A program made the position numbers and the translations under genes. A stretch of DNA of 64,000 nucleotides from a virus, in IMG/VR virus record IMGVR_UViG_3300007511_000004, positions 82,557 to 146,556 of that record. One strand, written 5' to 3'. The notes beneath the pieces were generated by a model. It saw only the letters and a list, made by a program, of their open reading frames with translations, searched no databases and was not told where the DNA came from. Each line of letters opens with the position of its first letter. Within the stretch, counting starts at the first letter, position 1. This document shows positions 4,739 through 36,441 of the stretch, one piece after another.

Positions 4739-4809
4739 TAGGGGGGTTTCTTTATCTAAGAAAGTATGATATAATATGAACATTCACAATGGGAAGAACG
4801 GAGAATTAT

Positions 4810-5220
4810 ATGTCTGATTGGGCAAATGATATTTATATGATGCACAATAAATTTGGGGTGCGAGAATGGTTTGAGAAAAATAAAGACAATGAAGAATTGA
4901 TGCGAGAATACCTTCAATTTCGAATGTCTATGATTATGGAAGAATTTGTTGAAACCCTGGATGCTATTGAGGCTAAAGACCCCGAAGAAATTGTTGACGG
5001 TCTGATTGATCTATGTGTCTTTGCAATTGGTACCCTGGACGTAATGGGCGTGGATGCGAATATGGCATGGGATCAGATCCATGAAGCCAATATGTCTAAA
5101 TCGCCGGGCGTGAAGCCTGGCCGTCCGAACCCGTTTGGCATGCCGGATCTTCTTAAGCCTGAGGGTTGGGTAGGACCAAGTCATGAGGGAAATCATGGCG
5201 ATCTCGCTCTCGTCGTTTAA
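4810..5220 (+). CDS. MazG/PRA-PH-like nucleotide pyrophosphohydrolase
   Basis: EE..E...A.......EIVDGLID, ANMSK, KPEGW. Confidence 0.75.
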   Translation: MSDWANDIYMMHNKFGVREWFEKNKDNEELMREYLQFRMSMIMEEFVETLDAIEAKDPEEIVDGLIDLCVFAIGTLDVMGVDANMAWDQIHEANMSKSPGVKPGRPNPFGMPDLLKPEGWVGPSHEGNHGDLALVV

Positions 5221-6121
5221 AAATCAATACGACAATAAACCTAAACAAACGGATTTCTCAGATTGGAAACATTTTGAGAGATTCCTCTATGCCCTTGCTG
5301 AAAGACCGCTAGGAGGTAAAAGGGATGCAGAACTTATTTCTCCGGCTGTATATGAGCCTGGAACCAGACGCGCAAATAAAAATGTATTATCTTGGGCAGG
5401 CTGGTGTGCTGTTGATGTTGACGATATTGAACTTGGGGATGACAATGTAAACGATTACGTTGACACCTTGTCCGATTGGCGTTACGTCTGCTATTCTACG
5501 GCTAGCTCTAAAGAAGAACAGCCTAAGTTTAGGATCGTCTTCCAATTAGATCGAGACGTAGTAACTCAAGAGATTAAACATTTCTGGTACGCCCTCCAAT
5601 CGTATTTGGATGAAGCTGGGGATAAACAGTGTAAAGATCTCAGTCGAATGTACTATGTTCCCGCAACGTATGATAGCGCGTTCAACTTCATTTTCAGTGG
5701 TGGTTCGGAGCCATTAGTGGTATCTGATCTACTTAGCAAATATCCGTATGTGGAAAAGAAAAATAGTAATAACTTTATAGATCGACTACCGGAGAAACTT
5801 CAGCGGCAGGTGATCGAACATCGTAAATCGAAGATGGAGGCAACCCAATACAATTGGTCTGGATATACCGATTGTCCATTCTGGCCAACTAAACTTGCTA
5901 ACGAGTATCGAGGGATCACTGGAACTGGTTGGTATCATAAGATGTATCAAATCATGGTAGCGATATCAGCCCGAGCTATTAGTAAGGGATACCCTATAAG
6001 AGCTGATCAGGTTGCAGAATTATGTAAGGAATTCGATCGTGAAAATGGCAATTGGTACGAGTCTCGACCCCTAGAAGTTGAAGCCGATCGCGCGCTCGAG
6101 TACGCATATAAAAACATATAG
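5195..6121 (+). CDS. primase/primase-polymerase-like (AEP-type) protein
   Basis: VDVDD, YSTASS...PKFRIVF.L, D..CKDLSRMYYVP. Confidence 0.6.
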   Translation: MAISLSSFKNQYDNKPKQTDFSDWKHFERFLYALAERPLGGKRDAELISPAVYEPGTRRANKNVLSWAGWCAVDVDDIELGDDNVNDYVDTLSDWRYVCYSTASSKEEQPKFRIVFQLDRDVVTQEIKHFWYALQSYLDEAGDKQCKDLSRMYYVPATYDSAFNFIFSGGSEPLVVSDLLSKYPYVEKKNSNNFIDRLPEKLQRQVIEHRKSKMEATQYNWSGYTDCPFWPTKLANEYRGITGTGWYHKMYQIMVAISARAISKGYPIRADQVAELCKEFDRENGNWYESRPLEVEADRALEYAYKNI

Positions 6122-7457: not shown

Positions 7458-7674
7458 AAGAAAGAGGCCTGGACTGATAACTCGTCTTTTCACAGACCTG
7501 TATACCGTAACACTCTACATAGAAGAGGACGGTGTGACAACCCAGACAATTTATAGACTGAAAGAGCTTAAAAAGATTAACTCCCATTATCTAAAGGGCG
7601 TGCTTGAAGATGGAACCGAAATCGAGTTTCGAATGGAGAAATCCTTTGATTATAAGGTGGTGAAACATTACTAA
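7447..7674 (+). CDS. hypothetical protein
   Basis: ORF in operon. Confidence 0.55.
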   Translation: MKNRRKRPGLITRLFTDLYTVTLYIEEDGVTTQTIYRLKELKKINSHYLKGVLEDGTEIEFRMEKSFDYKVVKHY

Positions 7675-8459
7675 TGCGGATTATTGCAGGACCGTGTCAA
7701 CACGAGAGTTTAAGTCAAAGTCTAGATATTGCAAAAGAATGTAAATGGGTATGTGATCAGTATGGCTTTGAATACATCTTCAAGGCCAGCTATGATAAAG
7801 CTAATCGTACACACGTTAACGGCAAACGAGGATTAGGGCTATATCAGACTCTCTATGACTTCAAAGATATGAAAGACGAGATCCCTGACCTAAAGATCCT
7901 TACTGATGTTCATACAAGTGCTGATGTATATGCAATAGCGGATAATATGGAACTGGCGGATGTTGTTGATATTGTACAAATCCCCGCATTCCTATGTCGC
8001 CAAACTGATTTAATCCAAGCCGCCGCAAACCGGTTTAAGATCGTTAATATTAAGAAAGGCCAGTTCCTTGCACCTTGGGATGTACAAGGCATCCTAAGTA
8101 AGACTGAAGCCTATGACATTGAAACCTGGATCACAGAAAGGGGTACCAGCTTTGGATACAACACTCTCGTTAATGACTTTGCAGGCATGCAATATCTTCA
8201 TAATTTGTTGGGCGATAACTTCGTTTACGATGTTACTCATTCAGTCCAGTCACCAGGAGGTAAAGGAGATTCTTCTGGCGGCAACCGTGATTTCGTTGCC
8301 GGTCTTAGCCGTGCAGCTGCTGCTATGGGCATTTCTTCTTTCTTTATAGAAGTTCATCCAGATCCGGACAACGCTCCAAGCGATGGGCCCAATATGATTC
8401 AACTAGATAAATTTCAACAGGTGATTGATGACATCGACCGCTATTCTTATCCCCGCTAG
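7674..8459 (+). CDS. kdsA: KDO-8-phosphate synthase
   Basis: IAGPC, FKASYDKANRT, QIPAFLCRQTDL, NIKKGQF, ERGTSFGY, DVTHSVQ, SDGPN. Confidence 0.95.
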   Translation: MRIIAGPCQHESLSQSLDIAKECKWVCDQYGFEYIFKASYDKANRTHVNGKRGLGLYQTLYDFKDMKDEIPDLKILTDVHTSADVYAIADNMELADVVDIVQIPAFLCRQTDLIQAAANRFKIVNIKKGQFLAPWDVQGILSKTEAYDIETWITERGTSFGYNTLVNDFAGMQYLHNLLGDNFVYDVTHSVQSPGGKGDSSGGNRDFVAGLSRAAAAMGISSFFIEVHPDPDNAPSDGPNMIQLDKFQQVIDDIDRYSYPR

Positions 8460-9117
8460 GATCGGGTCTAAAAGGTTTCCGGGTAAACCTTTAATCCACC
8501 TTGATGGTGTACCTATGATTCGAAGGATCTACGATATTTGTAGCTCTACGGGTCTGCGCACGTATGTTCTTACGGACTCTGAAGAGATCTGTAAGGTTAT
8601 CCCAAATGGCGATGCACTGATGACCGACGGTTATAGCGATCTTCCCCCTCGGAATGGTACTGAGCGCTGCTCAATCGCAGCGGCCCATATAAAAGATCTT
8701 GCCGAGCACGATTATTTTATCAACGTTCAGGGAGATATGCCAGACATAACCCCCGAAATGATCCATAAGGTACGTGCTTTATTGGATCACTATACTGTAT
8801 CAACGTTATATACGGATCTGCCTGAAAATATGAAGGAGGATCCAAATACGGTTAAAATGATAACCAACGGCGACATCGCACATTGGTTCGGTCGAGGGTT
8901 TAAATACGGGCATCACCACTTGGGAATCTATGGGTACCGTAAAACCGCCCTAAAAAGTTACTATCATCGTGCTCCATCTGAATATGAAATTATCGAGGAA
9001 TTGGAACAGCTAAGATGGTTCGAGGGGGGTTTACGGATAGGCGTAGATATGGTACAATTCAATGGTATCGAAATTAATACACCAGAAGACGCGGAAAGGT
9101 GGAACGCTAATGACTGA
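8425..9117 (+). CDS. kdsB: CMP-KDO synthetase
   Basis: IPAR.GSKRFPGKPL, NGTER, NVQGD, HLGIYGYR, E.LEQLR, INTPED. Confidence 0.92.
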   Translation: MMTSTAILIPARIGSKRFPGKPLIHLDGVPMIRRIYDICSSTGLRTYVLTDSEEICKVIPNGDALMTDGYSDLPPRNGTERCSIAAAHIKDLAEHDYFINVQGDMPDITPEMIHKVRALLDHYTVSTLYTDLPENMKEDPNTVKMITNGDIAHWFGRGFKYGHHHLGIYGYRKTALKSYYHRAPSEYEIIEELEQLRWFEGGLRIGVDMVQFNGIEINTPEDAERWNAND

Positions 9118-9154
9118 TAAAGCACTTTGGATGAATAACTGAGGGGGATCTTAA

Positions 9155-9502
9155 ATGAAAGCTGGAAAAGTATGGGGTATGACTGAACTCATTGAAGCCA
9201 ATGGGGCTTTAGAGTTTCACCGTATTGAAATGGATAAGGGCGGGGTTTGTTCAAAACACCTCCATGAGTTTAAGTGGAATGGATTCTACGTCGAGTCTGG
9301 TAAGATGCTTATTCGAGTATGGCAAAAAGATTATGATCTTGTAGATGAAACTATTCTATATCCTGGTGATTATACTAAGGTAAAGCCTGGGGTATACCAC
9401 CAATTCGAATGTCTTGAATCCGGGGTAGCTTATGAGCTGTACTGGGCGGAGTTTTCTCATTCAGATATCAAACGGGAGACGGTTGGGTTTCAACAACACT
9501 AG
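9155..9502 (+). CDS. cupin-fold protein (sugar isomerase-like)
   Basis: K.WG, CSKHLH..K...FYVESG, PGVYHQF. Confidence 0.7.
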   Translation: MKAGKVWGMTELIEANGALEFHRIEMDKGGVCSKHLHEFKWNGFYVESGKMLIRVWQKDYDLVDETILYPGDYTKVKPGVYHQFECLESGVAYELYWAEFSHSDIKRETVGFQQH

Positions 9503-9510
9503 GATCAAAT

Positions 9511-10068
9511 ATGAAAGAGCTAGAACCCGTTGGTATAACCTGTAGCACCTTTGATCTATTACATGCCGGTCACATACTAATGTTGAGAGAAGCAAAAAAT
9601 GTCTGCAATTATCTAATTTGTGGTTTACAAGTAGATCCAAGTTATGATAGAATATATAAGAACCCACCGGTACAGACGTTAGTAGAACGCTACTCTCAAC
9701 TGGCTGCAGTGAGGTATGTTGATGAAATTATTCCATACCAAACCGAGAAGGATTTAATGGATATATTGCAAATGTATCCTATTGATGTACGCATTATCGG
9801 CGACGAATATAAGACCCGAGATTTTACTGGTAAAGAAGAATGTCGTCGTCTAGGCATTGACATTTATTATAATAAAAGGGATCATAGATTTTCATCTTCT
9901 GATCTAAGACAAAGGGTACATGAGAATGAACAGAGTAAGCGGGAGAAATCTCTCCGAGGGGCTCAAAGCGCTAAGGACTTTATTATACAGACAGGGATAC
10001 GAGATTCAGACGGGGAGCTGGCAGGGTACGACCTCTCCGCCTACGTTCCTGGAGATTCTTCACGCTGA
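9511..10068 (+). CDS. cytidylyltransferase (TagD/RfaE-like)
   Basis: TFDLLHAGH, YVDEIIPY, FSSS motifs. Confidence 0.85.
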   Translation: MKELEPVGITCSTFDLLHAGHILMLREAKNVCNYLICGLQVDPSYDRIYKNPPVQTLVERYSQLAAVRYVDEIIPYQTEKDLMDILQMYPIDVRIIGDEYKTRDFTGKEECRRLGIDIYYNKRDHRFSSSDLRQRVHENEQSKREKSLRGAQSAKDFIIQTGIRDSDGELAGYDLSAYVPGDSSR

Positions 10069-10708
10069 CCTCGTTGCTCCTATGTATAGTAATGCGAAGA
10101 GAGCGTCAGATGAATTAGAAGCAAGTCAACCCTGGGCTGATGTACACTTTCGAGAACGGGTCGGCGGCGAACCTCTGAATCCTCCCCCATCACATACTAT
10201 GTGGCTTAAAGACACTGAGAAATATATGTCGGGTGCTAATGATACCGCATTCTCTCACTCCTACCCTGAACGTATGTGGGCACCGAGCGTCGATGGTATC
10301 CGCTTTAAAACTGGTAACCTGGGCGATGCAGTAGAGCTACTTAAAAAAGATAGCACTACCCGCCAGTGCTACGTTCCCATGTGGTTTCCCGAGGATATTG
10401 TAGCAGCCAATGCGGGAGAACGAGTACCGTGCTCATTTGGATGGCACTTTCTGGAACGTGGCGGTCAACTACACTGTTCATATCATATGCGATCTTGTGA
10501 TGTAGTCCGACACTTACATAATGATCTATACTTCGCCAATCGTCTTACTATGTGGATGATTGAGCAAAGCGGTATGGATGTTAAGCCTGGGTATCTTCAC
10601 TTCTCCTCGACCTCGCTCCATTGCTTTGCAAATGATCGTTTCGCATTGAGGCGTCTTTCGGGTGTGACCGAATATAACTGGGATAATTTTGAAGGAGCAG
10701 CCGTTTAA
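9926..10708 (+). CDS. thymidylate synthase homologue, dCMP hydroxymethylase-like
   Basis: TTRQ, catalytic VPC, MRSCDVVRHLHND (Asp at the specificity position, as in T4 gp42 MRSND...ND), SLH. Confidence 0.75.
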   Translation: MNRVSGRNLSEGLKALRTLLYRQGYEIQTGSWQGTTSPPTFLEILHADLVAPMYSNAKRASDELEASQPWADVHFRERVGGEPLNPPPSHTMWLKDTEKYMSGANDTAFSHSYPERMWAPSVDGIRFKTGNLGDAVELLKKDSTTRQCYVPMWFPEDIVAANAGERVPCSFGWHFLERGGQLHCSYHMRSCDVVRHLHNDLYFANRLTMWMIEQSGMDVKPGYLHFSSTSLHCFANDRFALRRLSGVTEYNWDNFEGAAV

Positions 10709-12003
10709 TGTGTGGACTTATTGCAGCAATTGGTTCCGAAATCGATGTAGAGGCGTTACTTGAGACCATCGCCCATCGCGGTTTACCCGGATATAAAGGA
10801 TATGAACGAAATCGGGACGTTCAGCTAGGCCATTATAGTCTACCCTTCGTCAATCTCGACCCTAACGTTGCCATTCAACCTCGAATGAATAGTAATTCGC
10901 TATTTGTTGGAGAAATCTTTAATTATGAAGAATTGGGGTTTGAGGATGATATTGAGGCAGCTTGGCAAACCTTTTGGATAAAGGGCATCCGAGAGTTTAA
11001 TAGATTTGATGGCTTCTGGACATATGTCACAGTTATGGATGGGGCACTGTTCGGGGTAACCGATCATCTTAGCATTAAACCCCTTTATTATCGTACCGAT
11101 GTAGATGCCATGGCTTCCGAGCCTGAAGTACTACGGGCATTCGGTCCAGTTACTCGTAATGAATTATTCCATGCCAATACTATGAAGTGGGGATACGATC
11201 CAACCGGTGGCACCCCGTGGAATGAGATTCAACAGGTTCCACCCGGATGTTTTGTATATAAGGGGCAAGTACACAAGTACTGGGATTGGAGGACTATCTC
11301 GCACACTAACTTGCGGGCTGATCTAATCGAATCAGTCGAACGACGACTTGGCGGCCAACGCGATCTTTCAATCCTACTATCTGGCGGACTTGATTCAACT
11401 ATCATCTATAAAATAATTACTGAAATCCTCAATCGTGATGTTACTGCGATCCATGTGGATAATCAAGAAGAAGACTACGCCCGATTGGTTTCAAATGAGA
11501 TGATCGAAGTTCGACTTGATGGTATCAGTGATGCAGACAGCGTATCGGTTCACCAATCACCCGTGGATCTGGGGAGTACTAAGCCCCAGATCGCCATGGC
11601 CCGGAAGTTGAAAGAATTAGCCTTTCATGCAGTATTGACCGGCGATGGTGCAGATGAACTTTTCGGGGGTTATCGACGCGCTAAAGAGTATGATAGTCAA
11701 GCTTCCGACATTTGGTGCGAGCTACCGTACTATCACCTACCTAAATTAGATCGTACAATGATGAAGAGTACTATTGAACTTCGCGCACCATTCCTATCTC
11801 CTAAGGTAATCGTCCATGCTCTTAATACCCCCTATGAACAACGTAATGGTGAAAAGAAAGTACTAAAGGAAGCGTTCAAAGATCTTGTGCCACAGGAAAT
11901 CTTAGATCGAGATAAACACCCTCTTAAGACCGATCAAATTCGTACTGATCCAATGAAACAACGAATTATTAATGAAAAAATCTGGAGAGAATTTAATGGA
12001 TAA
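10708..12003 (+). CDS. asparagine synthetase B-like glutamine amidotransferase
   Basis: N-terminal MCG (Ntn Cys), HRG, GEIFNY, LSGGLDS, GDGADELFGGY, ELRAPFL, EK..L. Confidence 0.9.
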   Translation: MCGLIAAIGSEIDVEALLETIAHRGLPGYKGYERNRDVQLGHYSLPFVNLDPNVAIQPRMNSNSLFVGEIFNYEELGFEDDIEAAWQTFWIKGIREFNRFDGFWTYVTVMDGALFGVTDHLSIKPLYYRTDVDAMASEPEVLRAFGPVTRNELFHANTMKWGYDPTGGTPWNEIQQVPPGCFVYKGQVHKYWDWRTISHTNLRADLIESVERRLGGQRDLSILLSGGLDSTIIYKIITEILNRDVTAIHVDNQEEDYARLVSNEMIEVRLDGISDADSVSVHQSPVDLGSTKPQIAMARKLKELAFHAVLTGDGADELFGGYRRAKEYDSQASDIWCELPYYHLPKLDRTMMKSTIELRAPFLSPKVIVHALNTPYEQRNGEKKVLKEAFKDLVPQEILDRDKHPLKTDQIRTDPMKQRIINEKIWREFNG

Positions 12004-12433
12004 GTGGGATACTCGTTATTTGAAATTGGCGAAGGAAGTCTCTACCTGGTCTAAAGATCCTTCGACCCAGATTGGAGCAGTAGCCGTCGGGAATAAGGGC
12101 GAAATATTATCGACCGGATATAACGGCTTCCCTCGCCACATTGCCGATCTTGATGAAAGATATGAAGATAGAGATATCAAATATAAATACATCGTCCATG
12201 CAGAGGCTAATTGCATATATAATGCTACATATAATGGGGTATCTCTAAGAGACAGCACCATGTACGTCTACGGTCTCCCCTGCTGTTCCGAATGTGGAAA
12301 GGCCATTATCCAAGTCGGGGTTAAACGAGTGGTCATGCACGGGGATCCTAATAATGATAGGTGGCGGGAATCTACGGAACGCACGCTAGGAATGTTTAAA
12401 GAAGCACTGATTGAATGGGAGTTTGATAATTGA
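11996..12433 (+). CDS. cd: dCMP deaminase
   Basis: SKDPSTQIGA, TGYNG, HAEAN, PCC.EC. Confidence 0.92.
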   Translation: MDKWDTRYLKLAKEVSTWSKDPSTQIGAVAVGNKGEILSTGYNGFPRHIADLDERYEDRDIKYKYIVHAEANCIYNATYNGVSLRDSTMYVYGLPCCSECGKAIIQVGVKRVVMHGDPNNDRWRESTERTLGMFKEALIEWEFDN

Positions 12434-13272
12434 AACGGATTATTATTGTCGGTCACGGCTTTGTTGGGAAGGCAGTAGATTACGGGTTTACGAATCCACA
12501 GGTAGAGAAGATCATAATTGATCCGAAATATGGTACAGATCTTTCCGACCTAAGCAATCTTATTGAAACAGACGCAATATTTGTCTGCTTACCTACCCCC
12601 ATGGATAAGGATGGATCGATCGATAGCGAAATCCTTGAATCGACATTGACCCGTCTTAAGGGTCGGATCACTGGTCTTGATAGACCTAAGGTAATTGTTA
12701 AATCAACCGTGACTCCCGACGTGCTCAAGCGGGTCTACTTCCGAGGCTTAGTTTATAATCCGGAATTCCTGACGGAGCGATCTGCAAATGAACAATTCAT
12801 CAATCCTACTATGCACATTTTAGGTGGCAGACGCGAAGATACTGAAGTGGTAGAGAAGCTAATTAATGAATATTCTCTTTGTAGCCCCGCACCCGTTTAC
12901 CATATGTCTATGTCAGAGGCGTCATTTGTTAAATATGGCATCAACGCCTTCCTTGCACTTAAGGTCCTTTTCTTCAATCAGTTGTATGATGTCGTGAATG
13001 ACGATGATGATAGTAATTTCGCACGCGTCATAAAAGCCATAGGTTCTGATCCGCGGATCGGCCACAGTCACACAAAGGTGCCGGGTTTTGATGGTAAACA
13101 AGGATTCGGTGGTGCATGTTTTCCCAAGGACATTTCTGCATTAAATACCTTCTCAGAGAGGTTTACAATCCTCGAAGAATGTGTTACAATAAACAATAAC
13201 TATCGTAAGAACTATGTATTAGACGATAGAGAGAAATCACAAAATATTTCATACAGGGAAACCAATAAATGA
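12430..13272 (+). CDS. nucleotide-sugar (UDP-glucose-like) 6-dehydrogenase, short form
   Basis: GHGFVG, CLPTP, KSTV, NPEFL, GFGGACFPKD. Confidence 0.85.
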   Translation: MKRIIIVGHGFVGKAVDYGFTNPQVEKIIIDPKYGTDLSDLSNLIETDAIFVCLPTPMDKDGSIDSEILESTLTRLKGRITGLDRPKVIVKSTVTPDVLKRVYFRGLVYNPEFLTERSANEQFINPTMHILGGRREDTEVVEKLINEYSLCSPAPVYHMSMSEASFVKYGINAFLALKVLFFNQLYDVVNDDDDSNFARVIKAIGSDPRIGHSHTKVPGFDGKQGFGGACFPKDISALNTFSERFTILEECVTINNNYRKNYVLDDREKSQNISYRETNK

Positions 13273-14180
13273 GTATTATGCAAAAGTTAAAGAAGAATAG
13301 TAGAGTTAAGTCCACCTCTATTCTATCCGAATCCAAATTCTTTAATGAAAAGGACATGATTACAACTGATGTTCCGATGATCAACGTCGCGTTATCAGGT
13401 GCAGTTGATGGTGGCCTATCATCAGGTCTTACGGTCCTTGCTGGTCCATCTAAGCACTTTAAAACTTCATTTGCTTTGTTAATGGCATCTGCATACCTGA
13501 AAAAATACGATGATGCGGTTATCCTATTCTACGATTCAGAATTCGGTTCGCCCCAATCTTACTTTGAACAGTTTGATATTGATACATCCCGAGTACTCCA
13601 TACGCCAATTACTAACGTCGAGGAACTCAAATTTGATATGATCCATCAGCTCGAAAGTCTCGAGCGAGGGGATAAGGTTGTTGTTGTCATTGACTCGATA
13701 GGCAACCTCGCATCTAAGAAGGAACTAGATGATGCTCTGAGTGAGAAATCAGTAGCAGATATGAGCCGCGCAAAAGCTCTTAAGGGGCTATTCCGAATGG
13801 CAACCCCTTATCTAACCATGAAGAACATTCCGATGCTTGCGATTAACCACACGTATCAAACCCTAGAATTATTTAGCAAAGCGGTAGTATCCGGTGGTTG
13901 TGTTGTCGAAGGAACTAAGATTCAAACGCAACGTGGTCTAATTGAAATTCAAGATGTGCGTGAAGATGACATTATCATTACCCAATACGGCGATAAAGAA
14001 GTCAAAGCGTTATGGAATCCAGATACACTTGAAGAAGGCAATCCTGAGTGTTATGAGATTGAATTTGAAGATGGGTACAAGGTAACCTGTTCAGATAAAC
14101 ACAAGTTCATCGTAAATGGGGAATGGGTTGCTGCTAAAGACTTGGTAGAAGATATGGATTGTGAAACCTTGAAATCTTAA
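13269..14180 (+). CDS. uvsX: UvsX recombinase N-extein (210 aa) fused to N-terminal half of a split intein (93 aa, 13899-14177)
   Basis: AGPSKHFKT, YDSEFG, IDSIGNLAS, DMSRAK; after VVSGG the sequence switches to intein block A (CVVEGTKIQT) and block B (VTCSDKHKF), then a stop. Confidence 0.93.
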   Translation: MSIMQKLKKNSRVKSTSILSESKFFNEKDMITTDVPMINVALSGAVDGGLSSGLTVLAGPSKHFKTSFALLMASAYLKKYDDAVILFYDSEFGSPQSYFEQFDIDTSRVLHTPITNVEELKFDMIHQLESLERGDKVVVVIDSIGNLASKKELDDALSEKSVADMSRAKALKGLFRMATPYLTMKNIPMLAINHTYQTLELFSKAVVSGGCVVEGTKIQTQRGLIEIQDVREDDIIITQYGDKEVKALWNPDTLEEGNPECYEIEFEDGYKVTCSDKHKFIVNGEWVAAKDLVEDMDCETLKS

Positions 14181-14184
14181 TTTG

Positions 14185-14192
14185 TATAAATA
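14185..14192 (+). promoter_or_regulatory. late promoter for the homing endonuclease
   Basis: TATAAATA in the 48-bp gap after the N-intein stop. Confidence 0.75.
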
Positions 14193-14228
14193 TTATCAGC
14201 AGTATAATACATAACCTGAGAGGCTGAT

Positions 14229-15059
14229 ATGAATTACAAATTACATTACGATAGATTAATAAGCAATGCAAGGTTGCGATTAAACGTGGACCAGTATACG
14301 GAAAAGCACCATATTATACCTAAGTGTATGGGTGGTGGTGATACCCCTGATAATCTGGTTAGATTAACAGCCAAGGAGCATTTCGTTGCACATCACCTAC
14401 TATGGAAAGAATACCGAACACCTGAATTGGCTCATGCCTGGTTTATGATGCTTCGGTGTGACCCTAACCAGAAAAGAGAATTTACAGCCAAACAGCATGA
14501 GGCTGCAACAATCGCGCATGTTGAAGTTCTGAGAAAAACTATGGTTGGTTCGGGTAATCATTTTTATGGAAGAAAGCATACTGAAGCGGCTAAGGCTAAA
14601 ATCAGTAGAGCCAATACAGGTAAGGCTCATACCCAAGAGTTTAGAGATGCATACTCCAAGAGATTCAAAGGTATACCTAAGACCCCAGAACATCGAGCTA
14701 AGATAGGTCGTACCGGACTTTCTATGTATCAGAACATAGAAACTGGTGAAATTGTAAGAGTAGCTAAAGGGACCTTAGACGAAACCTTGTGGGTTAACCC
14801 TAGGAAATTGAAGCCAGAAGCCCGACGCAAATGCACTTACTGTGATTTTATATCCACAGAATCCAATCTAAAGATGTGGCATGATGGTAATTGTCGGTGG
14901 AAAGATACTGGAATATATGTTAAGCCATCAAGTATAAGAACCACTAATAGGAAACGAATACCAGTTACAATAGACGGAGTACAATACAAATCGATTAACG
15001 CGGCCGCGAAGGCATTAGGAGTGAGTAAATATGAAATCAAAAAACTGGCTGCCATTTGA
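14229..15059 (+). mobile_element. free-standing HNH homing endonuclease (MobE-like) with NUMOD3-like DNA-binding repeats
   Basis: EKHHIIPKCMGG.D...NLV.LTA.EH..AH; H/KT.E.K.KI repeats; C-terminal IDGV.Y.SI..AAKALG. Confidence 0.85.
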
Positions 15060-16233: not shown

Positions 16234-17598
16234 ATGAACATTAATCTTGAGCAGACAATCCTCCGGAATTTGCTAGTAAACGAGAAATATACACGTAAGG
16301 TTCTCCCTTATATTAGTCCCGAATATTTTGAGGGCACATATAAAACACTATATCATGAGGTAGGTAAATTTGTAGCGAAATATAATAAATTACCTACTTT
16401 AGAATCATTTAAAATCCAGGTCGACGATGCAAGCATGAGCGATGAACAATATCGCCATGCGGTAGAGATCCTACCAGCTTTATTTGATAAAGAGGAAGTA
16501 GACCAAGAATGGCTTTTAGACACTACTGAAAAATGGTGTCAGGATCGCGCGGTATTCAATGCTGTAATGGAGTCAATTACGATCATTGACGGTAAGCACC
16601 AAACTCTTACTAAAAATGCTCTTCCAGAAATCCTCAGTAAGGCACTGGGCGTATCATTCGACTCTAATGTGGGTCACGATTACCTAGAGAATTGGCTAAC
16701 TCGATACGATTTCTATCACACCCAAGAATCCCGTATCCCATTTGATCTGGATATGTTAAATAAGATTACTAAGGGCGGTTTACCAAATAAAACCCTTAAT
16801 ATAATACTTGCGGGCACTGGAACAGGTAAATCCCTATTCATGTGTCACCAGGCAGCGGCAGCTCTTTCCGAAGGTTATAACGTACTCTATATTACTATGG
16901 AGATGGCAGAAGAACGCATCGCTGAACGCATTGATGCTAATCTAATGGATATCCCGATCGATCAGCTTGAAAATATGTCTAAGAATATGTTCTCCGAAAA
17001 AGTTGCACATATCTCTAAAAAGACCACGGGTAAATTAATTGTAAAAGAGTATCCGACTGGACAAGCTAATAGCTCACACTTCCGGGCACTGATAAACGAA
17101 CTTAAGTTGAAGAAGACGTTTAAACCTAATATCATCTTTATTGACTATCTAAATATCTGTGCTTCATCGAGGATGAAGACTATGGGAGGATCCATCAATT
17201 CCTATACATACATTAAGGCAATTGCGGAAGAACTACGAGGGTTGGCGGTTGAATTTGACGTTCCGATCGTATCTGCAACTCAAACGACGCGTTCGGGTTA
17301 TTCGAATCAGGATATTGGGCTTGAGGATACCTCGGAGTCTTTTGGACTACCCGCTACAGCAGACCTCATGTTCGCACTCGTCTCAACCGAAGAACTTGAA
17401 GCCCAAGGTCAAATAGCGGTCAAACAACTAAAGAATCGATATAATGATCCCACTAAGTTCAAACGATTTGTGCTTGGGGTAGATCGGAGTAAGATGAGAT
17501 TGTATGATGTAGATGTAGATGATCAGGGGTTAGTGGACGATACGCCAGCCTTCGATAAAAGTGAAATGAATAATCGATTCAAAGATTTTAAACTATAG
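16234..17598 (+). CDS. 41: replicative DNA helicase (T4 gp41-like)
   Basis: AGTGTGKS, ITMEMAEE, IFIDYLNIC, SATQTTR, SESFGLPATAD, KQLKNRY. Confidence 0.96.
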   Translation: MNINLEQTILRNLLVNEKYTRKVLPYISPEYFEGTYKTLYHEVGKFVAKYNKLPTLESFKIQVDDASMSDEQYRHAVEILPALFDKEEVDQEWLLDTTEKWCQDRAVFNAVMESITIIDGKHQTLTKNALPEILSKALGVSFDSNVGHDYLENWLTRYDFYHTQESRIPFDLDMLNKITKGGLPNKTLNIILAGTGTGKSLFMCHQAAAALSEGYNVLYITMEMAEERIAERIDANLMDIPIDQLENMSKNMFSEKVAHISKKTTGKLIVKEYPTGQANSSHFRALINELKLKKTFKPNIIFIDYLNICASSRMKTMGGSINSYTYIKAIAEELRGLAVEFDVPIVSATQTTRSGYSNQDIGLEDTSESFGLPATADLMFALVSTEELEAQGQIAVKQLKNRYNDPTKFKRFVLGVDRSKMRLYDVDVDDQGLVDDTPAFDKSEMNNRFKDFKL

Positions 17599-17607
17599 GA
17601 GTAAATA

Positions 17608-17838
17608 ATGCAAAATACTAGTAACGCAATCCGTAAACTGGTTCGACAGGAATATCTGAAATCCCCGGATCGTATCATCAACCAGTTAAAGGCTTCTAGG
17701 AAAGGTAAGCGGACCATGGTGACTATTGAGAACCCGAATAAAGAGGAAACCAACCGCCCCTTTATCCGGATTGAGGGTAAGGCCTGGTTTAAGTCCCAGA
17801 AGAAGACCAATCAAATTACTGTAAAGGAGGCAGAATGA
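17608..17838 (+). CDS. hypothetical basic protein
   Basis: AGGAG RBS, ORF in operon. Confidence 0.6.
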   Translation: MQNTSNAIRKLVRQEYLKSPDRIINQLKASRKGKRTMVTIENPNKEETNRPFIRIEGKAWFKSQKKTNQITVKEAE

Positions 17839-18506
17839 AAGCGCGTCTAGTCGGGTATACCCAACCCACCCTAGAATTCGAGAATGAATTTCGGAACGTC
17901 CAGGATCTGATCGCTTTCTGTGCACGGGTCTCAAATCCTGCCAATCAGTTTAATAATGAGACCGGCAAGAAGCTTATTGAGTATCTGATTAAGCATAAAC
18001 ATTGGTCACCCCTTGAAATGGCGAGTGCAACCCTGGAAGTTGAAACCACTCGGGATATTGCTCGACAGCTTATCCGACATAGATCATTTTCGTTTCAGGA
18101 GTTCTCACAGCGCTATGCTGATCCGAATGACCTAGAGGAATCATTTGTATTGAGGGAAGCGCGACTCCAGGATCCTAAGAATCGTCAAAACTCTATAGAT
18201 AATGATGATGAGAAATTGCAGAAAGGCTGGCACTTTAAACAACAGCAGATTATCCATGAATGCAAGTTAGCATACAAATGGGCAATCGAAAATGGTATCG
18301 CAAAGGAACAGGCGCGAGCAGTACTTCCGGAAGGCAATACAGTATCTAAATTGTATGTCAATGGTACACTCAGATCCTGGGTGCATTATATCGAATTACG
18401 GACGGGTAACGGAACGCAAAAAGAGCACATTGAGCTAGCTAGAGAGTGCGCAATTGCAATCGCCCGCTGTTTCCCTATGGTAGAAGGATTTACAGAGAAT
18501 GGGTAA
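17835..18506 (+). CDS. thyX: flavin-dependent thymidylate synthase
   Basis: ARVS, HWSPLE, RQLIRHRSFSFQEFSQRY, EQARAVLP, TQKEH. Confidence 0.95.
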   Translation: MKARLVGYTQPTLEFENEFRNVQDLIAFCARVSNPANQFNNETGKKLIEYLIKHKHWSPLEMASATLEVETTRDIARQLIRHRSFSFQEFSQRYADPNDLEESFVLREARLQDPKNRQNSIDNDDEKLQKGWHFKQQQIIHECKLAYKWAIENGIAKEQARAVLPEGNTVSKLYVNGTLRSWVHYIELRTGNGTQKEHIELARECAIAIARCFPMVEGFTENG

Positions 18507-19280: not shown

Positions 19281-19865
19281 ATGAAAATGCTTCCGAAGAT
19301 TCTAGTAGTTGGTCATGGCCGACATGGTAAAGATAGCGTGGCTGAGATCCTCCAAATGTTCTATGGGATGACCTTTAGAGGATCAAGTGAGTTTTGTGCT
19401 GAGACTGTATGCTTTCCCGCAATGAAGGCCGAATATGGTTATAAAGATTATATGGAGTGTTTTGATGATCGCCATAATCATCGATCGGAGTGGTATGATC
19501 TTATCTCGCAATATTGTGCTGAAGATCCAACCCGGCTAGGTCGTGAAATCTTTAAGGTATCGGATGTCTACTGCGGACTTCGGAATAAAAGAGAATTCCA
19601 TGCACTGAAAAATGCAGGAGTATTTGATATTGCGCTATGGGTAGATCGATCCGATCATCTACCACCAGAAGATAGGGCGAGTAATACTATTGAACCTTGG
19701 ATGGCAGATTTTGTCATTGATAATAATGGCTCCAGGGATGATCTAACCCTTGCAGTGAAACAACTTATGGATAACCTATTGGGTCGAAATAGTCCCGAAG
19801 TATCTAATATGTCACATCACCAAGAATTTGCAACTGAAAATATCATTAACTTGGATAATATCTAA
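19281..19865 (+). CDS. deoxynucleoside monophosphate kinase-like protein
   Basis: N-terminal P-loop GHGRHGKD, GLR...EF, IDNNGS. Confidence 0.65.
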   Translation: MKMLPKILVVGHGRHGKDSVAEILQMFYGMTFRGSSEFCAETVCFPAMKAEYGYKDYMECFDDRHNHRSEWYDLISQYCAEDPTRLGREIFKVSDVYCGLRNKREFHALKNAGVFDIALWVDRSDHLPPEDRASNTIEPWMADFVIDNNGSRDDLTLAVKQLMDNLLGRNSPEVSNMSHHQEFATENIINLDNI

Positions 19866-24654: not shown

Positions 24655-25590
24655 ATGAACTATTTTGAGATTGAACCAGAACAAAATACCTTCTCTAATA
24701 TAGTAGTAGATCTCACCCATCGCTGCAATATGGAATGTGCTAACTGCTATATTCCTAACCGTGATATCCCTGACCTAGATAAAGATAAGCTGTTCCAATT
24801 CTTATCCAAACTCCCCAGTAGAACATACATTCGTTTAATTGGTGCAGAACCAACTATGCGAGGAGATCTCCCCGAAATTATTGCAATGGTCAAAAAGCTT
24901 GGACATAGACCCAGCTTAACCACTAATGGTCTAAAGCTTGCAAATCTTTCCTACGTTAAAACATTAAAAGAATCCGGACTTCGCTTGCTACTCCATAGTA
25001 TGAATGGTGCGGACGATGATATGGTCTATAAAGCACTAGATAATGGCAAATGGGCAACTGTAAAGGTCCGAGCTCTAAACAATATATTTGCCGAAAGACT
25101 TCCAATCAATACCGGTACTATTATTGCTCGTGGCGTAAATGAATACGTTATGAATAGACAGGTAGAAGTATTTGCTGAAAGAGCAATCGCAAATGGAATC
25201 AATTTTAATACAACACCTCCATACAATAAAATAACTCCGGTTCTCAGAATGAAATCGGTTGGTATGATCGGAAGATATATGGAAGGTGTATCTTATACAA
25301 TTGATGAGTTATCAGATATGGCAGTTTATAGATTAGGTATAGATAAATCTGATATCATAAAAACATCAGCAGGTGTAGTAAAAGCCGGACCTCAATCCGG
25401 TGAAGCTTTGACCTCTTATATGTTCCCATATCAAACCAAAGCGGGTAAAGTCTTAATTAGACTTATCGATTGGCAGACGGATGACGAAGGAGTCATTGAT
25501 CATGACAATCCCAATCGTGGTAGATTAACCCAGAACTTTAAAATCGCACCATTTTTTGAGCATGTGAAAAAGAATGAAAACGGCTATTAG
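24655..25590 (+). CDS. radical SAM protein (MoaA-like fold)
   Basis: CNMECANC CxxxCxxC, GAEPT, TTNG. Confidence 0.9.
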   Translation: MNYFEIEPEQNTFSNIVVDLTHRCNMECANCYIPNRDIPDLDKDKLFQFLSKLPSRTYIRLIGAEPTMRGDLPEIIAMVKKLGHRPSLTTNGLKLANLSYVKTLKESGLRLLLHSMNGADDDMVYKALDNGKWATVKVRALNNIFAERLPINTGTIIARGVNEYVMNRQVEVFAERAIANGINFNTTPPYNKITPVLRMKSVGMIGRYMEGVSYTIDELSDMAVYRLGIDKSDIIKTSAGVVKAGPQSGEALTSYMFPYQTKAGKVLIRLIDWQTDDEGVIDHDNPNRGRLTQNFKIAPFFEHVKKNENGY

Positions 25591-35236: not shown

Positions 35237-35605
35237 ATGGATAAATCTTTTAAAAATTTTCTAGAGAATTACGACGAGTGCATGGACGAGGCATTAAACC
35301 TTGGCCAGCGTCGGCGAAAAGCTATTCAGATGCGGAAGATGAAGGGTAAAATCGCTATCGGGCAACGTCGAGCCAAAATGAGGGTAGCCGATTCATCACG
35401 TCTTCAAAAGCGAGCAAGAAAACATGCTCGTACCTTCTTACTTAAAAAACTGACTAAGGGTAAGGGTAAAAAGGATCTCGATTACGCTCGGAGAGAGGCA
35501 ATTGAGAAAAGACTAGATAAGATGAAGGGTAAGGTTGATCAGTTAGCCAAAAAGCTGCTACCCAAACTCCGTAGAGCTGAAATGACTAAAAGACAGAAAA
35601 AATGA
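35237..35605 (+). CDS. basic hypothetical protein
   Basis: SFKNFLE N-terminus, very K/R-rich. Confidence 0.65.
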   Translation: MDKSFKNFLENYDECMDEALNLGQRRRKAIQMRKMKGKIAIGQRRAKMRVADSSRLQKRARKHARTFLLKKLTKGKGKKDLDYARREAIEKRLDKMKGKVDQLAKKLLPKLRRAEMTKRQKK

Positions 35606-36441
35606 TCAATTCATTTAAAAATTTCCTGGTCGAGGAAGAAAAGACCGTTTACTTCACGTTTGGGAGAATGAATCCCCCTACGATCGGACACGGTAAGCTG
35701 ATGGATACATTATCCTCTAAGTCGGGTAATAACCCATATAGGATCTTTTTATCCCAGTCTAGTGATCCTAAGAAAAATCCTTTGACCTATGTAGATAAGG
35801 TCAAATTCGTTAGAAAAATGTTCCCAAAACACGCTCGATCCGTTATTTTGAATCGTAAAGTAAAGAACGTATTTGATATTGCGGTAATCCTCTACAATGA
35901 AGGCTATAAGAACGTAGTCATGGTCGTGGGTTCAGATCGTGTAACTGAATTTAAAACCCTCCTTCAAAAATATAATGGTAAAGACGCTCGTCATGGCCAT
36001 TATAACTTCAAAAAAATTATGGTAATATCTGCAGGCGATCGTGACCCAGATGCCGAGGGCGTTTCAGGTATGTCAGCTTCTAAAATGCGCAACTTTGCGG
36101 CAGATAATGATTTTACCCAATTTGCCCAGGGGCTTCCTAAAAGAGTGTCTAATGCTGATGCCAAGACCTTATTTAATACTGTCCGGAAGGGGCTGGGACT
36201 CAAAGAAGAAACTAGTTTTAAGAAGCATGTTCAGTTATTCCCTGTATCAGAAACCCGCGAGGAATATGTATTGGGAAATATGTTTAATGTTGGCGACCAG
36301 GTCGTTATAAAAGAGTCTAGTGAGATCGTTGTTATTGCAAGCCGAGGTCCGAACTTCCTAGTATTGGAAACGACTGATGGTAAGAAATTGCGTAAGTGGT
36401 TAAATGATGTAGAATTACTAAACGGAGATAAAGATGACTGA
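35602..36441 (+). CDS. cytidyltransferase-like (HxGH) nucleotidyltransferase
   Basis: FGRMNPPTIGH, KNPL, VGSDRV, SAG.RDPD, MSASKMR. Confidence 0.85.
   Translation: MINSFKNFLVEEEKTVYFTFGRMNPPTIGHGKLMDTLSSKSGNNPYRIFLSQSSDPKKNPLTYVDKVKFVRKMFPKHARSVILNRKVKNVFDIAVILYNEGYKNVVMVVGSDRVTEFKTLLQKYNGKDARHGHYNFKKIMVISAGDRDPDAEGVSGMSASKMRNFAADNDFTQFAQGLPKRVSNADAKTLFNTVRKGLGLKEETSFKKHVQLFPVSETREEYVLGNMFNVGDQVVIKESSEIVVIASRGPNFLVLETTDGKKLRKWLNDVELLNGDKDD

Follow-up and report, generated by a model that had tools for sequence, protein, structure and literature searches.

We describe a pair of adjacent genes in an uncultured, marine, T4-like phage that probably builds an undescribed nitrogen-bearing cytosine for phage DNA. 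The pair lies in a 64,000-nucleotide stretch (the window; positions 82,557 to 146,556 of IMG/VR record IMGVR_UViG_3300007511_000004), which forms the end of a viral record of 146,556 bp that is complete, carries direct terminal repeats and has a GC content of 41.7%. Positions are those of the window unless stated otherwise. The first gene (9926-10708, in an open reading frame (ORF) that extends from 9920) encodes a protein of the thymidylate synthase (TS) fold, and the second (10708-12003; Asn_synthase E = 2e-31) encodes a 431-aa protein resembling the asparagine synthetase AsnB. Both are on the plus strand and meet in the sequence TAATG, where the TS stop codon TAA (10706-10708) overlaps the AsnB-like ATG (10708-10710), just as a first-pass annotation of the window had reported. 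A Shine-Dalgarno sequence, GGAG, stands ~10 nt upstream of this ATG. Our preferred reading, held with a little more confidence than doubt and with a chemistry that we infer, is that the two enzymes catalyze consecutive steps by which deoxycytidine (dC) is replaced by a modified dC before replication.

The TS-fold protein and its predicted substrate

The TS-fold protein scored above the Pfam gathering cut-off for PF00303 (Thymidylat_synt; 31.3 bits versus 24.3), and its translation includes RVPCSFGWHF and HMRSCDVVRHLHND. With the catalytic Cys146 also aligned, the assignment at 9926 of a TS-fold gene with a catalytic Cys is well founded. The start at 9926 (MNRVSG) is backed by homologues and by a high predicted local distance difference test score (pLDDT) over residues 1-60; the public gene call (P0146) is a truncated one of 208 aa, even though conservation and confident folding extend over the first 50 residues. 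An AlphaFold model with 36 homologues in the alignment reached a pLDDT of 88 and a predicted template modelling score (pTM) of 0.87. Its top Foldseek matches were MilA CMP hydroxymethylase (5jnh) and the HY126 deoxycytidine monophosphate (dCMP) hydroxylase (9iqu/9iqc), with template modelling (TM) scores of 0.65-0.70 at ~15% identity, and the Foldseek probability was 1.0 against MilA, AfhB and ThyA alike.

Residues were compared in E. coli ThyA numbering, in an alignment with E. coli ThyA, T4 gp42 and the canonical-core TS that lies beside the dihydrofolate reductase (DHFR) gene of Xanthomonas phage Bosa. The catalytic Cys146 and the phosphate-binding Arg166 and Arg126 are invariant in the 36 homologues, as is Asp169. 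Position 177, which is Asn in ThyA, is an invariant Asp, in line with the earlier description of the protein as a dCMP-type TS. Position 143, which is Leu in ThyA, Asp in T4 gp42 and Asn in Bosa, is an invariant Arg. The subfamily also shows changes from Leu172 to Arg/Lys, Gly173 to His/Phe, Arg127 to Gln and Tyr209 to Phe, the window protein itself having R172, H173, Q127 and F209.

This pattern sets the protein apart from each characterized group. Asp177, Arg143 and a best score of 34 bits against the ThyA equivalogs of NCBIfam (cut-offs 108-405) are not those of a bona fide ThyA. Hydroxymethylases carry Asp or Glu at 143, and the gp42-type dCMP hydroxymethylase is recognized by Asp177 together with an acidic residue at 143 (PMC13326640); here Asp177 is present but 143 is Arg. 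The D169N change that is the signature of 5-hydroxy-dCMP synthases of the RB69 gp48 type (PMC13326640) is missing, Asp169 being kept. On its residues, then, we assign the protein to a distinct subfamily, 'R143/D177', of the TS / dCMP hydroxymethylase superfamily, and it is predicted to modify dCMP at C5.

A role in thymidylate supply appears dispensable. ThyX is present (17835-18506, plus strand; Thy1 E = 4.2e-42) and supplies deoxythymidine monophosphate (dTMP), as the first-pass annotation held, and no DHFR gene was found in the genome; the TS-fold gene, the only one of PF00303 type in the 146.6-kb genome, is therefore not needed for making thymidylate.

The AsnB-like protein and its acceptor site

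The AsnB-like protein starts MCGL, contains the PP-loop motif SGGLDS and has a GATase_7 match just under the cut-off. Its AlphaFold model (pLDDT 95.8) shows a complete two-domain AsnB fold with a TM score of 0.78 to E. coli AsnB (1ct9), and both domains superpose on the E. coli and human asparagine synthetases. In common with E. coli AsnB, the window protein keeps the N-terminal Cys (Cys2, the Cys1 of the N-terminal nucleophile (Ntn) domain), G75, E76, D98, SGGLDS and the ATP lysines K429 and K449. Of the 132 family members compared, 117 keep Cys1 and 122-131 keep Gly75, Glu76 and Asp98, while the S, D and S of SGGLDS, Lys429 and Lys449 are invariant.

It departs from E. coli AsnB in being 120 residues shorter, in its score against the glutamine-hydrolysing asparagine synthetase family TIGR01536 (165.9 bits versus a cut-off of 267.1) and in its acceptor site. 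The positions used by AsnB for aspartate and catalysis are changed in the family and mostly invariant in their new state: T322 to D, E348 to D, D384 to H, and K376 to V/I (I in the window protein), with E348 to D and D384 to H invariant. The roles of K376, D384 and E348 are those published for E. coli AsnB, in which K376 and D384 belong to the aspartate site. As judged from these replacements, the protein is not an asparagine synthetase but should be an adenylating amidotransferase whose acceptor is other than aspartate. That the gene is instead an ordinary auxiliary metabolic gene making asparagine for the infected cell would fit its Pfam Asn_synthase match, its overall fold and the public annotations, which name it asparagine synthase; given the TIGR01536 shortfall, the four acceptor-site replacements, the missing 120 residues and a gene context that is always one of nucleotide metabolism, we consider this extremely improbable.

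The family is large. A word-seeded search, in which the 8000 best word-sharing candidates were scored, returned at least 4939 proteins at E <= 0.001, and an exhaustive profile-free search gave 188 fifty-percent clusters under 1e-30. Most members came from metagenomes of marine or estuarine origin, and many lie on 110-157-kb contigs; only phage-like contigs were seen. A tblastn search of the phage collection with the window protein gave 13 weak matches, none of them in a Synechococcus phage, so that any similarity to SpCmoY is below what tblastn picks up.

Conservation of the gene pair across phages

To measure how regularly the two genes occur together, we considered 69 viral loci in which the flank on the upstream side of the AsnB-like gene was 1 kb or longer. 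The same TS subfamily was in the locus in 43/69, a Tmk-like dNMP kinase was next to or near the AsnB-like gene in 32/69, and one or both were present in 66/69, so that the co-occurrence check proposed by the first-pass annotation came out in its favor. A MazG or dUTPase_2 gene was found in 28/69, a dCMP deaminase gene is another frequent companion, and every aligned TS partner carries the R143/D177 signature. The pairing of the TS and AsnB-like genes is far beyond chance.

The association with TS or kinase persists down to 31% AsnB identity and in unrelated phage types. In a different T4-like phage (L025) the order is TS, Tmk-like kinase, AsnB and deaminase; in two loci (L027 and L062) a kinase fusion is followed by AsnB, a C5/N6 methyltransferase, TS and MazG; and in 45-48-kb phages with PolA (L028 and L030) the order is kinase, AsnB, dUTPase_2, N6/N4 methyltransferase, TS, deaminase, single-stranded DNA-binding protein and PolA. 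Smaller phages of about 36 kb (L064 and similar) have dUTPase_2, TS and AsnB, and a further locus (L086) has kinase, AsnB, TS and dUTPase with overlapping junctions. In a group of 350-kb phages the kinase adjoins AsnB and the same TS subfamily lies ~100 kb off in 2/10 records searched, namely the sole complete one (348,582 bp), with 267 bits, and one that is half complete; completeness in the remaining 8 is 39-59%. The AsnB-adjacent kinases are homologous to the tmk products of the TS clusters of Serbin, Muddy and Zuko (phmmer E ~1e-5 to 1e-14; P-loop and DR motifs in common), which favors mononucleotide substrates.

Among the closer, T4-like relatives, a dCMP deaminase gene (cd) is the conserved third member of a TS-AsnB-cd trio. 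In the window it lies at 11972-12433 on the plus strand (dCMP_cyt_deam_1 E = 7e-21, 74.5 bits versus 25; phrog_174 E = 1.6e-44), and its translation contains the zinc motifs VHAE and PCCSEC (HAE / PCxxC). It follows the AsnB-like gene in every relative with an AsnB identity of 42% or more for which downstream flank is available, and the trio is kept across relatives with 42-86% AsnB identity. In IMG/VR relatives at 74-86% identity the trio is constant while the genes for KdsA, KdsB, cupin, cytidylyltransferase and dehydrogenase come and go; in a relative at 62% identity the trio stands between polymerase/MazG/primase and uvsX/gp41/ThyX with zero sugar genes. In one group of close relatives (L009-L011; e.g. 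L011 5503-6001), an insertion of ~500 bp separates the TS stop from the AsnB start and abolishes the overlap.

The gene after the deaminase (12430-13272, plus strand) encodes a 280-aa protein like UDP-glucose/GDP-mannose dehydrogenases, with the UDPG_MGDP_dh N-terminal and central domains. The C-terminal UDP-binding domain is missing, leaving the three-domain arrangement incomplete; the catalytic Cys motif GGACFPKD is kept, and the short form is constant (276-281 aa) in the relatives that have it. The gene is present in loci L001, L003-L008, L014, L015 and L017 and absent from L002, L009-L013 and L018-L021, all of which keep TS-AsnB-cd. The earlier statement that a deaminase and a nucleotide-sugar dehydrogenase follow the pair is correct for both genes, but the dehydrogenase is a variable neighbour and probably not part of the cassette.

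The first-pass annotation had offered as an alternative that the AsnB-like enzyme amidates a uronic acid in a glycan. By this account the substrate would come from the neighbouring dehydrogenase, and the uronamide sugar would be destined for a virion, host-surface or DNA glycan. Pairs of a dehydrogenase and an AsnB-like amidotransferase do occur in O-antigen loci, and here the dehydrogenase-like gene is two genes downstream, with 3-deoxy-D-manno-octulosonic acid (Kdo) pathway genes upstream. Yet the dehydrogenase has no UDP-binding domain. Many relatives retain TS-AsnB-cd but not the dehydrogenase and Kdo genes, among them L002 (82% AsnB identity), L009-L013 and L019-L021, and the AsnB-like genes of other phage lineages have no sugar genes alongside. 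As these genes vary while the trio stays, we regard sugar amidation as very unlikely.

A proposed pathway for cytosine replacement

The pyrophosphatase, cytosine-type TS-fold enzyme, amidotransferase, deoxynucleoside monophosphate (dNMP) kinase and dCMP deaminase found together in these phages are the gene set of a pre-replicative base-replacement pathway. Because they are conserved as a set, we read the pair as two consecutive steps on dCMP. The window is also syntenic with T4 between the DNA polymerase gene and uvsX. The T4 order is gene 43, imm, gene 42 (dCMP hydroxymethylase), beta-gt, segA, uvsX, gene 40 and gene 41, and the TS-fold gene stands at the position of gene 42 and the AsnB-like gene at that of beta-gt. 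To our knowledge, pre-replicative replacement of cytosine has been known in three forms, with 5-hydroxymethyl-, 5-methyl- and 5-hydroxy-cytosine.

The substrates, the order of steps, action on the nucleotide and the product, as we infer them, would be as follows. A MazG-type pyrophosphatase and the breakdown of host DNA would supply deoxycytidine triphosphate (dCTP) or dCMP. The TS-fold enzyme would then add a group to C5 of dCMP by covalent catalysis through the conserved Cys, with Asp177 selecting cytosine. The AsnB-like enzyme, using ATP (adenylation at the PP-loop) and amide nitrogen delivered by the Ntn domain, probably from glutamine, would turn the C5 substituent into a nitrogen-bearing one; by family precedent, conversion of a carboxyl to a carboxamide is the most likely chemistry. 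Alternatively, glutamine-derived ammonia could be added to an exocyclic methylene or an activated hydroxymethyl group, giving 5-aminomethyl-dC. Finally, a dNMP kinase and the phage polymerase would place the product in DNA, while dCMP deaminase and ThyX would handle dTMP. The candidate for clearing dCTP and supplying dCMP in this module is the MazG/PRA-PH-type nucleotide pyrophosphohydrolase encoded at 4789-5220 on the plus strand (PRA-PH E = 8e-12; phrog_671 E = 5e-26), a gene that the first-pass annotation had rightly picked out as MazG-like.

Several points weigh against this scheme. Enzymes of the AsnB family need a carboxylate, which they adenylate and then turn into an amide, and we know of no TS-fold reaction (methyl, hydroxymethyl or hydroxyl transfer) that gives one. 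No match to CmoA or C5-methyltransferases (TIGR00740, PF00145) was obtained in the complete 146.6-kb genome, and TET/JBP genes are likewise absent from it, leaving none of these to make the carboxylate. The genome also yielded nothing significant for a T4 gp1-type or Tmk-type kinase (tblastn, phrog_761), and no homologue of gp56, the T4 dCTPase. Muddy, Zuko, Serbin, Gordonia and Clostridium phages have the TS subfamily but no AsnB, which indicates that the TS product does not require AsnB. Lastly, in the clade of the window protein (120 clusters, at least 57% identity) the glutamine-site residues of E. coli AsnB are replaced (R49 to S/A and N74 to V/A in 120/120), with Cys1 kept in 120/120, so that glutamine use is likely but uncertain; R49 is retained in most of the distant members. 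The first-pass annotation had called the protein a full Ntn-glutaminase with a PP-loop domain, and while the two-domain fold, the Cys and the PP-loop stand, the glutamine-site residues R49 and N74 do not. Its wider proposal, that the pair makes an N-substituted, C5-modified pyrimidine, is borne out in the functional coupling of the two genes and in their link to nucleotide metabolism; the source of the carboxylate is not evident.

Two other sources of a carboxylate were considered and set aside. A route through CmoA/CmoX or TET was rejected on the absence of the genes from the genome, and the short dehydrogenase was rejected as an oxidase of 5-hydroxymethyl to 5-carboxyl on its absence from many relatives.

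The AsnB-like enzyme could instead work outside DNA modification, in nucleotide or amino-acid metabolism, by aminating a pyrimidine carbonyl to rebalance pools or by amidating another small metabolite, with the TS making 5-methyl- or 5-hydroxymethyl-dCMP only. PP-loop enzymes outside the AsnB family, such as GMP synthetase and TilS, aminate base carbonyls and provide a precedent, and both the occurrence of the TS subfamily without AsnB in many phages and the altered glutamine-site residues of the window clade would suit such a role. However, with a dCMP deaminase encoded alongside, the amination of substrates of the deoxyuridine monophosphate (dUMP) type would run in a futile cycle. The acceptor pocket shows strict conservation and differs from the one in AsnB, and the family was seen only on phage-like contigs, nearly always with this TS subfamily or its kinase. 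We therefore think a metabolic role unlikely.

One AsnB homologue is known to act on phage DNA. In Synechococcus phage S-B43, CmoA, CmoX and CmoY convert cytosine in DNA through 5-carboxymethyl-C to 5-glycyl-carboxymethyl-C, the last step being the ligation of glycine to 5-carboxymethyl-C by CmoY, an AsnB homologue; a glutaminase-bearing sister cluster of CmoY is predicted to use ammonia (PMC12783734). By analogy, the window enzyme could act after replication, modified dCMP being incorporated and the base then flipped out and amidated or aminated. CmoY, the only characterized phage AsnB homologue, does work on DNA (PMC12783734), and some distant homologues adjoin C5-DNA-methyltransferase-like genes (P0285, L027, L059, L060, L062). 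Against this, the tightest neighbours (Tmk-like dNMP kinase, dUTPase or MazG, and the TS-fold enzyme) are all mononucleotide enzymes, the present genome has no C5-methyltransferase, and the methyltransferase neighbours elsewhere may be incidental. Action after replication is in our view improbable.

A second phage context of this kind is found in Achromobacter phage Motura (L118, 18037-19317), where a 426-aa AsnB-like gene lies between QueC and a DpdA-type transglycosylase in a 7-deazaguanine cluster and may amidate 7-carboxy-7-deazaguanine. Among viral structure matches its product ranked second (TM 0.75), behind F2Y1H0. It was rejected as a member of the present family, its acceptor-site signature being different and a canonical TS lying nearby, and is used as an analogy only. 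Together, CmoY and the Motura gene context suggest that AsnB-type enzymes are able to act on carboxylates in the major groove of bases.

Returning to replacement at the nucleotide level, a more specific and doubtful version, built on this analogy, is that the TS-fold subfamily catalyzes a reaction not known for this fold, in which C5 of dCMP receives a group with a carboxyl (carboxy or carboxymethyl). Arg143, which is invariant, and the Arg/Lys172 near C5 could hold the carboxylate, amidation would pull the reaction, and 5-carbamoyl- or 5-carbamoylmethyl-dC would replace cytosine. If true, these nucleotides would be found in an abundant, uncultured marine T4-like lineage and in several other phage groups.

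Comparison with known systems

The closest overall parallel is the T4 pathway from dC to hydroxymethyl-dC (gp56 dCTPase, gp42, gp1 dNMP kinase, cd and the alpha/beta-glucosyltransferases). In both systems a TS-fold enzyme with Asp177 acts, or is expected to act, on dCMP before replication, from the same genome position and with a dCMP deaminase and a pyrophosphatase. They differ in that Arg143 here replaces the Asp of gp42, that residues 127, 172, 173 and 209 are changed, that the second enzyme is an ATP-dependent amidotransferase and not a glycosyltransferase, and that the gp1 and gp56 homologues of T4 were not found. The presence of the deaminase agrees with a survey in which a dCMP deaminase was within 3 kb of an N177D TS in 70% of C-modified viral contigs, compared with 6% of unmodified ones (bioRxiv 10.1101/2024.12.05.627091).

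With CmoA-CmoX-CmoY the present system would share an AsnB-family, AMP-forming enzyme that decorates cytosine C5 of phage DNA. There, however, the carboxylate is provided on DNA by a homologue of S-adenosylmethionine (SAM)-type C5-methyltransferases and carboxy-SAM (Cx-SAM), whereas here neither CmoA nor the methyltransferase is present and the partner is a TS-fold enzyme with dNMP-kinase neighbours in relatives. The 5-hydroxy-dCMP synthases (RB69 gp48, DLP3 gp80 and HY126 AfhB) and MilA are the closest structural matches and are likewise cytosine-specific TS-fold enzymes that feed hypermodification; they differ in the D169N of the synthases, in their sequence (identity ~15%) and, for MilA as for gp42, in the acidic residue at 143 where the window protein has Arg.

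Among isolates, the same TS subfamily is carried at 32-42% identity, with R143/D177/R172/H173 and the same kinase and deaminase families, by Mycobacterium phage Muddy (gp46), Streptomyces phage Zuko, Serratia phage Serbin and many Gordonia phages; in Clostridium phages the identity is ~28%. The gene order in the three isolates examined (Muddy, Serbin and Zuko) is Tmk, dUTPase or MazG, a hypothetical gene, TS, deaminase and PolA. Unlike the window, the Muddy, Zuko, Serbin and Gordonia clusters have no AsnB-like gene and carry an unrelated hypothetical protein upstream of TS. In Muddy the TS is at 35270-36043 (L022; Serbin L023, Zuko L024). The unannotated upstream protein of these clusters has 270-350 aa, and Muddy gp47, Serbin 051 and Zuko 75 had no Pfam family match. 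The 312-aa ORF that follows MazG in the window was considered as a gp47-like member of the pathway and rejected: it is a primase (5183-6121, plus strand; phrog_9765, 2e-37), and BLAST showed no relation to gp47. Cytosines may be modified in Muddy and in the many actinophages that share this TS subfamily. Since Muddy is a therapeutic Mycobacterium phage, the identity of the TS product matters beyond marine phages.

Our literature searches found no paper describing the pairing of TS with an AsnB-like gene, and none on the DNA chemistry of the Muddy, Zuko, Serbin and Gordonia TS clusters. A survey of pelagimyophages noted 'two thymidylate synthases and a dCMP deaminase' in one group and did not comment on the AsnB-like gene (PMC7029224). 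Since the cassette adds an ATP-dependent amidotransferase to a new TS-fold branch, a further nitrogen-bearing cytosine derivative is likely. If true, this bears on the evasion of host restriction and CRISPR by these abundant phages, on their recovery by sequencing and on the enzyme toolbox for DNA labelling.

Neighbouring genes and other features of the genome

The DNA polymerase of the phage (2279-4738, plus strand) shares no more than 49% identity with its counterpart in any isolate, with cyanomyoviruses next at ~45%. In a blastn search against the phage collection there was no close cultured relative, the sole match being a 138-nt stretch of the deaminase gene. Between the primase and the TS-fold gene lies a run of plus-strand sugar-nucleotide genes (7674-10068): KdsA (7674-8459; DAHP_synth_1 E = 6.5e-49), KdsB (8425-9117; CTP_transf_3 E = 2.9e-24), a cupin (9155-9502; Cupin_2) and a cytidylyltransferase-like protein (9511-10068; CTP_transf_like). 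These genes are absent from L019-L021 and only some of them occur in other relatives; they constitute a variable insert upstream, outside the cassette. The cytidylyltransferase-like ORF overlaps the TS-fold gene by 143 nt, out of frame, and its Pfam domain stops at residue 135, just before the TS start.

Downstream, the overlapping junctions continue with 32 nt between AsnB and cd, 4 nt between cd and the dehydrogenase gene and 4 nt between the latter and uvsX. The uvsX gene, which begins at 13269 on the plus strand, is broken by an intein and an HNH gene: its ORF (13269-15059) has Hint/intein-splicing matches past residue 210, and a gene for an HNH/NUMOD homing endonuclease comes after it. 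The gp41 helicase gene (16234-17598) comes next on the plus strand, ahead of thyX.

Two further genes that the first-pass annotation had cited as fitting a base-substitution lifestyle fared less well. For an endonuclease II-like nuclease no gene was found, the genome's only GIY-YIG match being 12.8 bits and under the cut-off. The dNMP kinase amounts to a weak PHROG match for a 194-aa ORF at 19281-19865 (phrog_139, dNMP kinase, 5e-13), with no Pfam match and no BLAST match to T4 gp1. The same ORF matches phrog_38514 at 7e-58, where this domain is fused behind a MazG-like domain, and to judge by this match its product is possibly a partner in nucleotide metabolism of the MazG gene at 4789-5220.

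Elsewhere in the genome (30180-30965 of the record, ~52 kb upstream of the window start) is a gene for a carbamoyltransferase of the NodU/CmcH type (Carbam_trans_N, 152 bits summed). In other phages, 5-carbamoyloxymethyl-C is the product of carbamoyltransferases that pair with TS homologues (PMC8670742), and by analogy this gene could conceivably be linked to the TS product. The replication and nucleotide region also contains a Zeta-toxin/AAA_33-type P-loop kinase, an Hsp20 gene and a radical-SAM-like ORF (185-850, 940-1437 and 24655-25590 of the window).

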